IMG/VR virus record: IMGVR_UViG_3300028591_005215
Coordinates: 64,001-128,000 of that record
Direction: 5' to 3' (one strand)
Length of the DNA: 64,000 nucleotides
Origin: a virus
Taxonomy: Duplodnaviria > Caudoviricetes
Under the pieces are notes generated by a model. It had not been told where the DNA came from. It did not search any database and saw nothing but the letters and a program-made list of their open reading frames with translations. Shown one piece after another: positions 3,016 to 8,651 of this stretch. How positions within the stretch are numbered: the first letter of the stretch is position 1; each line of letters opens with the position of its first letter. The translations under genes were made by a program, and so were the position numbers.

Positions 3016-3615
3016 TTAAGAAAAATCTTTTAATCTATAATAATGTGATAAATCCCAATTTATACTGTCATTTTTACTTAAAATGTAAAATGAAGCTTGG
3101 GGTATTGTAAAAATTTTTTTAAAACCTAATCGTTTCCAATAATCATGTGATTTAAGGTCTTTTTCTACTGCGCACCAAATAAAATCAAATGATTCAGCAT
3201 ATTTTTTAATATACTTTAACATTTTAACATCTATTTTTTTACCTCTTAAACGTTCATCTATTATGAATGAATGACCATTTATTTGCGTGTATTGGTTTAA
3301 ATATTTGGATAGGTTAGGATTTACCAAATTAATTGGAGAGCCTTCGCATATGGGATAATATGCTATTAAAAGCAAGCCATATAGTTCGCCATCACGTGAA
3401 TCTATAAGCTTAACTGATTTATTTAAATCAATATTGCTATGAACTATCTGTTCAAATGCCATCATATTATCGCCTAAACCCCAACTTTTAGTTATAAATT
3501 CTATTATTTGTGGTACATCGTTAGGTACAGTTGACGTAATCTCGATGTTTTCCAATAGTTCTTCACCACTTAGTTCTAAGTTACCAAATCTATTGCATAA
3601 ATCTAAAGACATCAT
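3016..3615 (-). CDS. GNAT-family acetyltransferase
   Basis: FIIDERLRGKKI (motif A-like) and YWKRLGF; TATATTTG promoter box at 3637-3644. Confidence 0.7.
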   Translation of the reverse strand: MMSLDLCNRFGNLELSGEELLENIEITSTVPNDVPQIIEFITKSWGLGDNMMAFEQIVHSNIDLNKSVKLIDSRDGELYGLLLIAYYPICEGSPINLVNPNLSKYLNQYTQINGHSFIIDERLRGKKIDVKMLKYIKKYAESFDFIWCAVEKDLKSHDYWKRLGFKKIFTIPQASFYILSKNDSINWDLSHYYRLKDFS

Positions 3616-3760
3616 ACTTTTAAAGATTTACATTTGCAAATATATAAAAAATATTTTTAATTTTCAAATTTGCTTATTTTAAAGAAAAAATGGAAAGCAA
3701 TTACTTCAAATAACGCTTTCCATTAAAGGTTGTAAAAATATTTGAGAAAATATGAGAATC

Positions 3761-4891
3761 TTATTTAATTACTACTTCATTATCAATGCAAGTTGCACTA
3801 AAAACGTAATTTTTCTTATAGTCATTCTCCAGCATTAAATCAGTAATTTTATCTTCAATATTATCTTGAACAAGCCTAATAATAGGACGAGCACCAAATT
3901 CCTTTTGACTAACTGCTTTAACGTGTAAGTAATCTACTACTTTGTCATCATATTTTAAATCATAATGTAATTCATTTAATCTATTGGCTAATTTATTAAT
4001 TTCTAACTTAACAATAGTATTAAGATTTTCATCAGTCAAATTGTTGAAATAAACTATTTTATCAATTCTATTTAAGAATTCTGGTGTAAACTTCTTTTTT
4101 AATGACTTTTCTATGATAGATTTTTTATTTGCTGTCTCGTTAGTGTTAAAACCGACACCACCACCAAGTTCAGCAGATTCTTTAGCACCAATATTAGATG
4201 TCATTAGAACAATTACGTTTTTAAAATTAACAATTTGTCCTGCTGAATCAGTTAGTCTTCCTTCATCAAATAATTGCAAGAATAAATTATAAACTTCTTG
4301 GTCAGCTTTTTCTATTTCATCAAGAAGCAAAACGCAATGCTGCTTATTTTTAATTGCTTCTGTTAATTGACCACCATTTTCATATCCTATATATCCAGGT
4401 GCAGCACCAGTTAATTTAGCAACTGAATTCTTTTCAGAATATTCTGACATATCAATCCTGACTAAAGCCTTCTCATCACCAAAAATTTCTTCGGCAAGTT
4501 TTTTCGCAATTAGCGTGTTATGACTTAGTATTCCATTTGTAAAATATCTATGGTTTGAATTGTCAGACAACGCCAAATCGTACATCTCTTCATATTCATT
4601 TGTATTAATAACGTCAGTGACGGTTTCAATACCATTTATAGTATAGATTTTATCACCTACGGCAAAATCTTTTGCAAATTTTTCTTCTAATTTTTCATTG
4701 AAAAGAATGTGGTCATCTGCACATTCAAGTTCTTTACCACTGGATGTTTTAATAATATATTTCAGATAAGGTATTGTCTTGTTTATAGAAACGATGTCAG
4801 CAAACCCATTATCAGTCTCAACTTCGTAATCTGTAACATCAATTATTTCTGTAAATTTTCTATTTATAGTATTTGATAATTTTTCATTCAT
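3761..4891 (-). CDS. Split intein C-fragment fused to the C-terminal half of a ClpC/ClpB-like AAA+ ATPase
   Basis: CADDH (block B), MYDLAL (block F), GILSHN|T (block G), then RIDMSEY, APGYIGY, LLLDEIEKA, PEFLNRID, FGARP; ATG at 4891 overlaps the upstream stop (ATGA). Confidence 0.9.
   Translation of the reverse strand: MNEKLSNTINRKFTEIIDVTDYEVETDNGFADIVSINKTIPYLKYIIKTSSGKELECADDHILFNEKLEEKFAKDFAVGDKIYTINGIETVTDVINTNEYEEMYDLALSDNSNHRYFTNGILSHNTLIAKKLAEEIFGDEKALVRIDMSEYSEKNSVAKLTGAAPGYIGYENGGQLTEAIKNKQHCVLLLDEIEKADQEVYNLFLQLFDEGRLTDSAGQIVNFKNVIVLMTSNIGAKESAELGGGVGFNTNETANKKSIIEKSLKKKFTPEFLNRIDKIVYFNNLTDENLNTIVKLEINKLANRLNELHYDLKYDDKVVDYLHVKAVSQKEFGARPIIRLVQDNIEDKITDLMLENDYKKNYVFSATCIDNEVVIK
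4517..4891 (-). mobile_element. C-intein (about 125 aa) of a naturally split intein
   Basis: Hint blocks B, F, G; ends His-Asn before Thr+1. Confidence 0.85.
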
Positions 4892-6090
4892 TTTTTTAAA
4901 AAATTTATACATTCATTAATTACTTTTTCTTTATTTTCCCTATAATCTTTTTCCCACACTACAAACTCTTCAAATCCATTTCTTTCAGCAATATTTTTTT
5001 TATCTTCATCTATTTCCCAAAGTTCTTTAGCTGTCTTATCGTGAAATGGATTTGGTTTATCAGATGGCTTAAACATTTTTGGGTTAGCATGATAAATATC
5101 TCCGTTAAATTCAATGAATTTTCTTTTATTCAAATCACAGAAATCGTACCTATAGTAAAAATTATTGTCATTTTTTAAAGTATATTCTCTATTTTTATCT
5201 TCATAAAAAACAAAATCTTTTTCTTCTTCTGGATATTTTTTCAATATTTCGCCAAAAAGCTCTTGGGATATTTTGGAATAACCTAGTTGATGAAAACCAG
5301 TTTTGTTTAGGCTATCTTGCCATTTTTCTTGTCTTTTCTTCCATCTTTTTAGTCCTTCATTTTCTCCGTATTTTTTTATGCACTTTTTAAGTGAAAATGT
5401 GGATTGTATTTCAGCAACTTTTTCCTTAGCATCATTCTCAGAGTAACCTTTTTCAATCCAGTGTTCTATGCACCTAACACTATTTTTTCTGCGTTCGCTT
5501 TTGCTTTTTGATGCATTTCTTTTAGCAAGTTCTGTTTGATATTCAGATACTTTTTTTTTAGCATCATTTTTAGAATAACCTCTTTTAAGCCAGTATTCAA
5601 CACACCAAATGCTTCTTTCTTTAAAGAATTTATTGCAATCTTTGCCAAGTGATTCTATATATTTTTTGTTAACTATTGGTACTTTACCAGCAGCTTTTTT
5701 ACCCCTTTCAGATTGCATTTTTGATATTATTTCTTTTCCTTCATTTTTAGAATAACCTTTTTTAAGCCAATATTCTATACACAACTTATTACGCTCCTTC
5801 ATATATTCATTAATGAAGTCGTCATCGAATCCACGTTCTAATAGTCCTTCACGAGAACTATGCCAATGCTTGATGAATGGAATTTTTTTAATAACATCTT
5901 TTATTAGTGTTAATTTGTTTATTTTTCCATCATTTAAACAATAGTAATCAAAGCAATCTTTTAATGCGTTTATTATTTTTGGATTTTTAAAGTTTAGTAA
6001 AGGATTAAATGACTTTAATACTTCAACAAATTCATTAAAATTTAAATCGTCACCAAATGTTTTTCTTTTTTTATCTAATAATATTGTCAT
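4888..6090 (-). CDS. Free-standing Vsr-like (PD-D/ExK) putative homing endonuclease
   Basis: C-terminal YDF...IEFNGDIYHANP...VVWEKD; three C(I/V)E(Y/H)W.(K/E)(K/R)GYS repeats; lies between the split intein halves. Confidence 0.75.
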   Translation of the reverse strand: MTILLDKKRKTFGDDLNFNEFVEVLKSFNPLLNFKNPKIINALKDCFDYYCLNDGKINKLTLIKDVIKKIPFIKHWHSSREGLLERGFDDDFINEYMKERNKLCIEYWLKKGYSKNEGKEIISKMQSERGKKAAGKVPIVNKKYIESLGKDCNKFFKERSIWCVEYWLKRGYSKNDAKKKVSEYQTELAKRNASKSKSERRKNSVRCIEHWIEKGYSENDAKEKVAEIQSTFSLKKCIKKYGENEGLKRWKKRQEKWQDSLNKTGFHQLGYSKISQELFGEILKKYPEEEKDFVFYEDKNREYTLKNDNNFYYRYDFCDLNKRKFIEFNGDIYHANPKMFKPSDKPNPFHDKTAKELWEIDEDKKNIAERNGFEEFVVWEKDYRENKEKVINECINFLKK

Positions 6091-6114
6091 AATATTTTGT
6101 TTTCTATATAAATA

Positions 6115-7998
6115 TTATGATTTTTTATATTTATTGGCTCTACTGGCTAACTTTTTAAACTCTTCTATCGTAAGTTCTTGTATTTCAAGTGTTTTCTTAT
6201 TTCTAACCCTTATTTTCGTGTTTTTTGTAACGCATTTTCCACAACCCGTAGGACCTCCCATTAGGATGTTAGCCATAGTTTTTGTTTTATCACCAAGTCC
6301 TACCTTGTTTCTTTTAATGACTTTGCAAATAGCATCAACAGCTTCATCTTGCCCTATAACACTATTTTTTAAAATTTCATCAATATGTGCAATCTTCTTT
6401 TTTTCGTTTGAACTGAGCTTTGAAACAGGCACCTTTACCATTTCTGAAATTGTTTCATTAATATCATCTGCGTCAATAATTACTTCTTTTGATTTTTTAG
6501 ATGACTGCTCACGTTTATAATCACTTAATTCTTTTTTGATTACATTTTCTTCTAACGTAATAGCATCAATTTTTTCAAATTCTCCAGCATTAAGATACGT
6601 TGATTTTTCTTCTTCAATTCCATCTAATCTTTTTTTCATTGCAATAATTTCTTTTGGCTCTTTTTCACCGATTGATGTTGATGCGCCTGCTAAATCAATA
6701 ACATCAAAAGCAGAATCTGGTAAACTCCTATCAGTTATATACCTTTCAGCAAGTTCAACTGCTTTTTCTATTGCTTCATCAGTGTATTTAACATTATGAA
6801 ATTCTTCATAATAACCTTTAGACTGCTTCAAAGTTTCAATGGCTTCTTTAGTACTAGGTGCTTCAATAATGATACGTTGCATTTTTCTTGAAATAGACGT
6901 ATTAGATTCAATTGAATTTCTATAATCTTTAAATGTTGTTGTACCAATAACTCTAACATCACCGCCAGATAAAATATCTCCAATCATTCCTGAAATATCA
7001 GTATCTTTATCTTTAGTTCCACTTTTTAAAACATTCTGCATATCATCAATAAAAAGAATGTACTTTGATGATGATTTTAATTCATCAAATAATCCTTTAA
7101 TGCGTTCTTCAAACATTCCTCTAAAGTGTGTTCCAGAAACAATTGCCATAATATCAATCATAACGATTTCTTTACCTTCAAGTATTGATGGTACGTTACC
7201 TTTTGAAATCATAGATGCCAAACCATACACAATTTCAGTCTTACCTACGCCACCATTACCTACAAGAATTACGTTGTTTTTCTTTCGTCTTGCAAGAACC
7301 TTGATAATTTCATTAATTTCATCTTTCCTTCCTACAAGTTCATCAATTTTACCGTTCTTAGCTAATTCATTCAAGTTAGTTGTAAACTTTGACACATATT
7401 CGTCTTTTGTTACAACGCTTGAAGTATTTACTTCACTTTTTAGAGGGAAAATAGCTGGTTTAAGCGAATTACCAATTTTATTACTGATAAAGCCTTTAGG
7501 CCTTATTGCTTTTGGTGTATGTTTTGGTTTAACTTTGTCTTCACTGCATTTATCTAAAATAAAGCTATATTCAATCCCTACTGTTTTGAATACATCCTTA
7601 ATTTTAATTTCGTTAGATGGGTTTAAAATAGAAAGTAATACATGTTCAGTGCCAACTTTTTTAGAACCTGTTGCTTCCATTTCTTTTTCAGCATTTTCTA
7701 AAATTTTATTTAGCTCAAAATCAAAGTTTACTTTACTATTGTCTTTATTTTTTACAATTGGCTTAGAATGTTCCTTTAATACGTTTATATAAATTTCTTT
7801 TAGTTCATACATATTATTGGACATTAAACAATTGTCAAGTATCATATTTGCGTGACAATTCTTTGTATCAAGAATTGAAACCATTAAGTATTCAGGCGTA
7901 AAAATTTCAGTTGGGAATTCATTTACAAGGATATCAACCATATAAGTCAAGACACCCTGTAGCTCATAAGAATAAATATCGTTTTTGCTTTCACTCAT
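6115..7998 (-). CDS. ClpC/ClpB-like AAA+ ATPase N-terminal half ending in an N-intein
   Basis: Clp N repeats (GTEHVLL), VGRKDEI, RRKKNN, GNGGVGKT, RYITDRSLPD, VIGQDEA, GPTGCGK|CVTKNT. Confidence 0.9.
   Translation of the reverse strand: MSESKNDIYSYELQGVLTYMVDILVNEFPTEIFTPEYLMVSILDTKNCHANMILDNCLMSNNMYELKEIYINVLKEHSKPIVKNKDNSKVNFDFELNKILENAEKEMEATGSKKVGTEHVLLSILNPSNEIKIKDVFKTVGIEYSFILDKCSEDKVKPKHTPKAIRPKGFISNKIGNSLKPAIFPLKSEVNTSSVVTKDEYVSKFTTNLNELAKNGKIDELVGRKDEINEIIKVLARRKKNNVILVGNGGVGKTEIVYGLASMISKGNVPSILEGKEIVMIDIMAIVSGTHFRGMFEERIKGLFDELKSSSKYILFIDDMQNVLKSGTKDKDTDISGMIGDILSGGDVRVIGTTTFKDYRNSIESNTSISRKMQRIIIEAPSTKEAIETLKQSKGYYEEFHNVKYTDEAIEKAVELAERYITDRSLPDSAFDVIDLAGASTSIGEKEPKEIIAMKKRLDGIEEEKSTYLNAGEFEKIDAITLEENVIKKELSDYKREQSSKKSKEVIIDADDINETISEMVKVPVSKLSSNEKKKIAHIDEILKNSVIGQDEAVDAICKVIKRNKVGLGDKTKTMANILMGGPTGCGKCVTKNTKIRVRNKKTLEIQELTIEEFKKLASRANKYKKS
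6118..6234 (-). mobile_element. N-intein (39 aa) of a naturally split intein
   Basis: CVTKNTKIRVR...ELTIEEF block A pattern starting at Cys1 directly after the Walker A Lys. Confidence 0.85.
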
Positions 7999-8116
7999 AT
8001 TTTCTCTATTTTTATATAAAATATATAATAATATTTTAAAGAGTCAAATAAAATATTATATATATTATTAAAAATAAAATATATATTATTTTTTTTGTTT
8101 TATTAATTATTTTTAA

Positions 8117-8124
8117 TATATTTG
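8117..8124 (+). promoter_or_regulatory. Bacteroidetes-type primary sigma -7 box (TAnnTTTG)
   Basis: TATATTTG upstream of the KTSC-thyA operon; same box at 19473, 36366, 49356 (+) and 3637, 28838 (-). Confidence 0.6.
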
Positions 8125-8186
8125 TAATATACGCAATGGAACTATGAAGCCTATTGCTTAGTTTTTTTTAAAAAAAAAAGAAGTTT

Positions 8187-8651
8187 ATGAGTAAATTATT
8201 TAATTATTATGCAGATGATGTTGATAAAGTATGGTATCAAAGCAGTAATATAAAATATTCAGAATGCATTGATAACGATAATAAGCCTAAGACATTAAAA
8301 GTAGTGTTTTCTAACGGTACACAATATCAATACGATGATGTTGACGTTAGAGATTATTTATTGTTTAGAGAAGATGATTCACAGGGTAAAGCACTAAACA
8401 AATTTATTAAATCAAAAGGTTATCAATTTACAAAATTACCCAATGCAGATTTAAATTTAATTAACGAAGAGTATGAATTTAGAACAGGTAATGGACTTCA
8501 AATAGAATCATTTGATAGTAGTAGCTTTAGAATCCTTGACAATAAAAATAATGAATTATATAGTATAAAAAATGCAGATGAATCTTCGTATGAAGATATA
8601 GTTAAAGATATTCTTAGTGCCGTAGGCTTCAACGTCAAAATAAAAGTTTAA
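8187..8651 (+). CDS. KTSC domain protein
   Basis: SSNI...LKVVFSNGTQYQYDDV...SQGKALNKFIK pattern. Confidence 0.75.
   Translation: MSKLFNYYADDVDKVWYQSSNIKYSECIDNDNKPKTLKVVFSNGTQYQYDDVDVRDYLLFREDDSQGKALNKFIKSKGYQFTKLPNADLNLINEEYEFRTGNGLQIESFDSSSFRILDNKNNELYSIKNADESSYEDIVKDILSAVGFNVKIKV

Follow-up and report, generated by a model that had tools for sequence, protein, structure and literature searches.

The window analysed here, a stretch of 64,000 nucleotides (nt) that corresponds to positions 64001-128000 of the 279,749-bp IMG/VR virus contig IMGVR_UViG_3300028591_005215 (estimated to be 80% complete), contains a gene of a giant uncultured phage for a ClpA/ClpC-type ATPase that appears to have been invaded, between the Walker A Lys and Thr of its second AAA+ module (D2), by a 1718-nt mobile cassette. 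This cassette is composed of a short N-terminal intein fragment (IntN), the gene of a Vsr-like homing endonuclease of the EDxHD type, and a long C-terminal intein fragment (IntC), and the two halves of the ATPase are predicted to be rejoined by protein trans-splicing. We assign this reading a probability of about 85%. That an atypically split intein breaks a Clp ATPase at the Walker A motif of D2 had been proposed from the letters of the window (the original prediction), and (i) an intein-less allele, (ii) relatives of solved structure, (iii) the fold of the nuclease and (iv) a family-wide alignment now bear this out.

Architecture of the locus

Three successive open reading frames (ORFs) on the minus strand occupy positions 7998-3761. 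The first (7998-6115; 627 residues) comprises an N-extein of 588 residues (6235-7998), which spans the Clp N-domain, the first AAA+ module (D1), a short middle region and D2 as far as its Walker A Lys (...GPTGCGK), and then the 39 residues of IntN (6118-6234) with Cys in first place (Cys1, codon 6234-6232), followed by a stop codon at 6117-6115. The second ORF (6090-4888) begins 24 nt past this stop and encodes the nuclease of 400 residues. The third (4912-3761; 383 residues) opens with 132 residues that end in Ser-His-Asn and run directly into TLIAKK (Thr+1, codon 4516-4514), the beginning of a C-extein (3761-4516; 251 residues and stop codon) that supplies Thr+1 and the remainder of D2. Translation from a second Met at 4891 would shorten the intein part to 125 residues, and since the IntC of relatives begins only 5-10 residues ahead of an RKF motif, we consider this Met the likelier start and take IntC to span 4517-4891, with 4912 as the alternative start. 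The corresponding ATG (4891-4889) overlaps the TGA of the nuclease (4890-4888). The original prediction had thus correctly described an N-half that stops at GPTGCGK plus 39 intein residues from the Cys, a C-half that opens with about 125 intein residues (blocks B, F and G) ending in SHN before TLIAKK, and an ATGA coupling of nuclease and C-half.

The extent of the insertion is evident from an empty allele. With the C-half as query, a pattern scan of IMG/VR gave 36 related loci, one of which (L006), located on the contig of a sister phage with 96-97% nucleotide identity, holds a single unbroken ORF of 839 residues that reads GPTGCGKTLIAKK, that is, GPTGCGK-TLIAKK. The sole large gap in a global DNA alignment with L006 corresponds to window positions 6234-4517, i.e., 1718 nt from the Cys1 codon, which the empty allele lacks along with the rest of IntN, through the terminal Asn codon. 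The N- and C-exteins are collinear with residues 1-588 and 589-839 of L006, respectively, and their sum (588 + 251) equals the length of its ORF. Because the L006 allele is uninterrupted, the insert is exactly 6234-4517. Moreover, in the PHROG Clp profile phrog_4871 the N-half covers positions 24-510 and the C-half positions 510-754; the matches meet at position 510, and the two halves hence abut without loss or duplication. A free-standing endonuclease ORF lies between the Clp halves and each half carries part of a split intein, which is the arrangement defined as a fractured gene (Dassa et al. 2009). This layout is seen again in a further contig (L005) and in over 100 clusters of the database, and is not a product of chance.

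Within the first 57 nt of the C-extein (window 4460-4516) there are 5 synonymous differences from L006, with ~2 expected, and none within the 57 nt at the end of the N-extein; the cluster, which is not significant alone, could be a co-conversion tract or reflect target-site drift. A search of GenBank phages for near-identical sequences gave no match. One tblastn match (H1, a 'Staphylococcus phage' record) that apparently covered part of the intein was rejected, being an ordinary intein-less bacterial ClpB.

As for the invaded protein, Pfam recognizes a weak Clp_N, AAA and AAA_lid_9 in the N-half, and AAA_2, ClpB_D2-small and a weak Intein_splicing in the C-half. The intact ortholog matches the ClpA family TIGR02639 over 29-818 and possesses two AAA+ modules with the D2-small domain; its scores are about equal for ClpA (623 bits, with a curated equivalog cut-off of 993) and ClpB (619 bits, cut-off 1232), and since both are below the cut-off, the host protein is best described as a divergent class I Clp ATPase that is an equivalog of neither.

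The split intein

When compared by sequence with the Protein Data Bank (PDB), IntC has its best match in CatC (6dsl_B; E 4e-5), which is an atypically split consensus of AceL-TerL and GOS-TerL, followed by PabCDC21-1 (6rpp), gp41-1 and VidaL. Among 26 aligned members of the family, the block B motif Cys-Ala-Asp-x-His (CADDH in the window), the Asp of block F and the terminal Ser-His-Asn are invariant, and Cys1 is kept in every IntN recovered from the family. The intein of the window ends in ...GILSHN-T, so that the penultimate His, the terminal Asn and the Thr+1 nucleophile are all there. Judged by sequence, IntN (block A only) and IntC (blocks B, F and G) form a class 1 atypically split intein of the S2 type, that is, one split after the first helix. 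The net charges of the two fragments (+8 for IntN, -12 for IntC) make them complementary, and such opposite charges have been reported for natural split inteins (PMC2677866).

Structural information was obtained by way of the database protein P0271, in which a mini-intein of this family, contiguous in this case, interrupts the Walker A motif of a gp46/SbcC-like ATPase. Alignment of the joined IntN and IntC from 15 cassettes to P0271 places the break in the window directly after the helix ...EEFKKLA; relative to the contiguous protein, the split forms have extra residues in a 9-residue IntN tail and a 5-10-residue IntC head. In the AlphaFold model of P0271 the mean predicted local distance difference test score (pLDDT) is 53 overall and 74-96 over the IntC-equivalent, and DSSP assigns, at low confidence, strand-strand-helix to the IntN-equivalent. 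The intein region of this model adopts the Hedgehog/intein (HINT) fold, with VidaL (Foldseek E 3e-9), RadA, Cat (template modelling score 0.77, normalised by the Cat chain length) and gp41-1 as top structural matches. In residues 53-207 of P0271 the Met and head of an IntC are retained straight after the IntN helix (...NHRK-MHQLSDTINRKF...), and the mini-intein looks as if it were a split cassette that lost its nuclease and re-fused. An IntC search revealed no further intein in the genome to which the window belongs.

The Vsr-like endonuclease

The gene between the Clp halves had been predicted to encode a Vsr-like nuclease of 400 residues, and its structure model confirms this. The protein matches phrog_22677, searches of Pfam and NCBIfam recognized no family for it, and a full HMMER search (E <= 1e-3) collected homologues in 5454 cluster representatives. 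The model, built on 43 sequences, has a mean pLDDT of 90.9. Its residues 266-400 constitute the Vsr-like/EDxHD catalytic domain and superimpose on Escherichia coli Vsr (1cw0_A) with a Z-score of 11.5 (root-mean-square deviation (r.m.s.d.) 3.2 Å, 115 residues), and on the catalytic domain of the homing endonuclease I-Bth0305I (3r3p_A) with a Z-score of 10.5 (r.m.s.d. 2.7 Å, 94 of 97 residues). D316, E327, G330 and H334 are invariant in the 43 sequences and D331 is nearly so; these residues were mapped on the Vsr active site by motif and not residue by residue. The N-terminal part is made up of helical repeats, including three '...YW..GYS..' units. For I-Bth0305I, cleavage of the intron-less target has been demonstrated by experiment (PMC3239194). 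In tblastn searches the nuclease also matches genes annotated as 'putative VSR endonuclease' in Aeromonas phages. Outside the window, the same genome contains a shorter ORF of 190 residues that resembles the Vsr-like catalytic domain (G000:C1:177306-177548, L003; E 2e-6), near which the IntC search located no intein.

Mobility and selection

The only other occupied allele among the 36 loci, L005, is located on an independent contig and shows the same three-ORF layout with the same stops. Nucleotide identity between the window and L005 climbs from ~77-85% to 93-100% precisely at 6234 and drops again past 4517. Synonymous divergence (dS) is 2.13 for the N-extein and 2.38 for the C-extein, and 0.20, 0.19 and 0.16 for IntN, nuclease and IntC, respectively. 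The ~10-fold lower dS of the cassette indicates mobility: the cassette is about ten times younger than the host genes that flank it and has recently moved as a single unit. The ratios of non-synonymous to synonymous divergence (dN/dS) are 0.08 and 0.03 for the N- and C-exteins, and 0.11 (IntN), 0.19 (nuclease) and 0.16 (IntC) for the cassette, so that all three cassette components are under purifying selection.

The wider cassette family

At least 210 clusters (90% identity) carry this IntC, mostly in proteins of 373-417 residues that consist of IntC and Clp D2. In these the D2 module is mostly intact, IntC identity goes down to ~55%, and the contigs are up to ~390 kb long. Related IntC fragments (50-60% identity) precede ClpX-like proteins (P0051), gp41/DnaB helicases (P0048, P0076; L048 and others), gp46/SbcC-like ATPases (L049, L052, L053) and terminases (P0064, P0272, L044), and in all these host genes the insertion point lies between the Lys and the Thr or Ser of the Walker A motif (GK-T/S). 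IntN is 28-53 residues long across the family, and the gap between the gene halves amounts to ~1050-1270 nt with the nuclease and to 130-310 nt when the nuclease is lost or reduced. A search for longer proteins revealed no contiguous Clp protein with this intein, giving only terminase C-halves and one gp46-like cis-intein.

Several loci are of interest in their own right. In L044 (4335-8522) one terminase gene apparently harbours three inteins, namely (i) an atypically split one in the P-loop (RQVGK-C ... SHN-TTT) with a 112-residue nuclease remnant, (ii) an atypically split one of the AceL/GOS-TerL type (... SHN-CEFLG) with a remnant ORF of 101 residues, and (iii) a large contiguous intein farther downstream. 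L049, L052 and L053 each possess two cassettes 3-4 kb apart, in gp41/DnaB-like and GGNGAGK-type gp46-like genes, and both cassette nucleases are lost in L052. L048 (1243-2862) contains a UvsX/RecA-like ORF of 539 residues with a contiguous mini-intein (AGGG-CLDP...INHN-TGPEY), which is missing from the homologous gene in L086.

Alternative explanations

Several observations weigh against a spliced Clp ATPase. The Ala of block B occupies, throughout the family, the position of the canonical Thr, which is similar to the situation in gp41-1 and Cat, where this residue is Ser. Structural support for IntN comes from the proxy P0271 only, with a pLDDT of ~45-56 in that segment. The L005 nuclease is frameshifted by +1 near codon 363, where an extra A in an A8/A9 run (L005:5910-5912) truncates the protein at 368 residues, which may reflect decay or a homopolymer or assembly error. 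Finally, 35 of the 36 loci read through as G-x-(T/S)-G-x-G-K-T/S, leaving 2 occupied out of 37 IMG/VR alleles when the window is included, and by this count the insertion is young in this Clp lineage.

The rarity of the insertion and the frameshift in L005 would also fit halves that stay unspliced, either because the intein fragments hold the Clp pieces together non-covalently or because the gene was inactivated by a recent selfish insertion and is decaying, and intein-less fractured phage genes that work without splicing do exist (examples are discussed in PMC2677866). We nevertheless consider this quite unlikely: the break falls within the P-loop, so that ~165 intein residues would stay in the ATP site, the splicing residues are all invariant, the dN/dS values of 0.11-0.16 for IntN and IntC signify constraint on both, and an intact D2 lies behind IntC in more than 100 diverged clusters. 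Removal at the RNA level, by a group I or group II intron that carries the nuclease ORF, might be contemplated since Vsr-like/EDxHD endonucleases also occur in group I introns (e.g., I-Bth0305I; PMC3239194), yet it is very improbable, considering that an Rfam search of positions 3500-8300 (E <= 1) found neither an intron of group I or II nor any other RNA family, that the nuclease ORF is flanked by in-frame intein blocks homologous to characterised split inteins, and that the IntN stop and the nuclease ATG are a mere 24 nt apart. A metagenomic contig in which the nuclease and IntC frames overlap might conceivably owe its layout to misassembly or a false frameshift in a contiguous endonuclease-containing intein, but such an artefact is scarcely credible given the same three ORFs and stops in the independent contig L005, the split layout of cassettes in other host genes, and the many database C-half proteins that begin at the IntC Met.

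Predicted assembly of the Clp ATPase

For the favoured reading of a fractured gene restored by trans-splicing, we envisage that the two Clp halves would be translated separately, and that the basic 39-residue IntN, folding as strand-strand-helix, would dock on the acidic IntC to complete the HINT fold. Class 1 trans-splicing, with Cys1, the block B His, the terminal His-Asn and Thr+1 as participants, would then join ...GCGK to TLIAK... and yield an ATPase of 839 residues with an intact P-loop. The spliced ATPase would probably work with the phage's own ClpP: a ClpP homolog is encoded outside the window in the same genome (G000:C1:261572-262093, L041; 190.8 bits to PF00574) and is the likely partner, and a GGGVGF stretch in D2, read by eye only, is a candidate ClpP-docking loop. 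The endonuclease, in turn, is expected to cut intein-less clp alleles of co-infecting relatives, whereupon repair would copy in the whole cassette.

Expression signals of the cassette

The minus-strand 9-mer ATATTTATA at 6107-6115 is located 16 nt ahead of the nuclease ATG. It occurs 13 times in the window (5.7 ± 2.6 in shuffles), and 12 of the 13 copies sit in sense orientation 3-47 nt upstream of ORF starts, several of them ahead of large plus-strand ORFs; examples are 14789, 28869, 32627, 37983, 45036 and 45080 on the plus strand, and 3016, 6115 and 49239 on the minus strand. The motif is thus a candidate phage promoter or leader element. The original prediction had assigned a late motif to the nuclease gene: its recurrent upstream element stands, and its lateness is no more than a possibility. 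The T4 late promoter octamer TATAAATA at 6107-6114 was rejected as a signal for the nuclease gene, to which it is antisense, lying on the plus strand; it is not enriched in the window (21 copies, against 16.7 ± 4.1). A sigma-70 scan gave no excess over shuffles.

The motif overlaps the 5' arm of an RNA hairpin (6087-6120, minus strand) with a stem of 11 bp, in which 6120-6110 pair with 6097-6087 and the nuclease AUG (6090-6088) is buried in the 3' arm (-7 kcal/mol, z -2.47). The hairpin is identical in L005, and in the L049 and L053 cassettes, too, the nuclease gene is preceded by a similar hairpin at its start codon, whose loop in some cases resembles TATAAATA. Dassa et al. (PMC2677866) described this arrangement for phage Aeh1 and for 15 of the 16 endonucleases of fractured genes. 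At the junction of nuclease and C-half no significant hairpin was found (z +0.58).

The original prediction had suggested that assembly of active Clp could be temporally gated, and it is tempting to speculate that the fracture serves as a timer. Transcripts that start at the clp promoter and read through into the cassette would include the complete hairpin, in which the nuclease AUG is masked, and transcripts begun at the cassette's own ATATTTATA element would be without its 5' arm. Nuclease and C-half, coupled in translation, would then be made mainly when the cassette promoter fires, and an active ClpC-ClpP protease would arise only at that time. This proposal is highly tentative, and we think it doubtful. 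Separately, a single cassette family appears to have moved among Walker A sites in at least five unrelated ATPases of phages.

Relation to known systems

The locus is closest to the fractured genes described in 2009 together with their Vsr-like endonucleases (Dassa, London, Stoddard, Schueler-Furman, Pietrokovski 2009, PMC2677866), and in particular to the GOS-TerL terminase locus, which was the sole exception with a long C-fragment. Common features are (i) a phage gene in two ORFs with split-intein halves at the break, (ii) a free-standing Vsr-like endonuclease ORF whose 3' end overlaps the downstream half, (iii) a hairpin before the endonuclease start, and (iv), for the GOS-TerL locus, a long C-fragment with all blocks except N1. 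However, the host of the cassette in the window is a Clp/Hsp100 unfoldase, whereas the enzymes listed in PMC2677866 all serve DNA synthesis, repair or packaging, and the word 'Clp' is absent from its text. Furthermore, the insertion in the window is at the Walker A Lys-Thr junction, and its hairpin contains ATATTTATA instead of TATAAATA in sense orientation.

Four natural atypically split inteins have been characterised, namely AceL-TerL, GOS-TerL, VidaL and PolB16, with IntN fragments of 15-37 residues and splits after strand β2 or the first helix (PMC13014065, PMC10189870, PMC11766414). Given these published cases (PMC13014065), the split into a short IntN and a long IntC is confirmed but is not as unusual as originally supposed, and the short IntN, suggested to be attractive for protein semisynthesis, is no advance in this respect, 39 residues being at the long end. 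AceL-TerL, GOS-TerL and Cat, which are split at the S2 site (PMC13014065, PMC11766414; PDB 6dsl), likewise have a short IntN with block A and the first helix only (25-37 residues, compared with 39 in the window), and share with the intein of the window the His-Asn end of an IntC that is 104-115 residues long in the former and 125 in the latter. Cys1 is common to the window intein, AceL-TerL and Cat, whereas GOS-TerL has Ser1. The sequence similarity to these three is only distant, and splicing of the window intein is a prediction; moreover, the TerL inteins precede CEFLG with Cys+1 (as seen in L044 and tabulated in PMC11766414), in contrast to the P-loop Thr+1 of the window. VidaL and PolB16 OarG (S1-type atypical split; PDB 6vgv, 8cpn) are also naturally split with a very short IntN, but their split occurs after strand β2, leaving an IntN of 15-16 residues (PMC13014065), and not after the helix.

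The nuclease shares with I-Bth0305I and the EDxHD family (Taylor et al. 2011, PMC3239194; PDB 3r3p) its catalytic fold, the invariant acidic and His residues, and an N-terminal extension of DNA-binding type. It differs in being free-standing between intein halves and not intron-encoded, and its target and cleavage activity are predicted. The insertion site, in turn, is that of the P-loop inteins (mycobacteriophage TerL1-a; DnaB-b, MCM-a, RFC; PMC5050341, PMC4760082), likewise located between the Walker A Lys and a nucleophilic Thr or Ser. Since placement between the Lys of the P-loop and a nucleophilic Thr has been called 'classic' (PMC5050341), the Thr+1 noted by the original prediction is present but is no unusual trait. 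These P-loop inteins are contiguous, however, whereas the family described here is split and has a separate endonuclease gene. A split intein in a Clp ATPase was not found described in the literature searched, a search that left many subscription papers outside.

The general understanding of inteins is unchanged by these findings. An atypically split intein with Cys1 and Thr+1 and with many natural variants has something to offer for protein engineering. The window and L006 constitute a pair of occupied and empty alleles at 96-97% identity, which provides a natural control for studies of trans-splicing and of homing by an EDxHD nuclease. That cassettes of one split-intein family occupy an identical P-loop site in the genes for Clp, ClpX, helicase, gp46-like proteins and terminase illustrates ectopic spread via a shared motif. 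With the Clp locus, an ATPase of protein quality control joins terminases and polymerases as a host of natural atypically split inteins.

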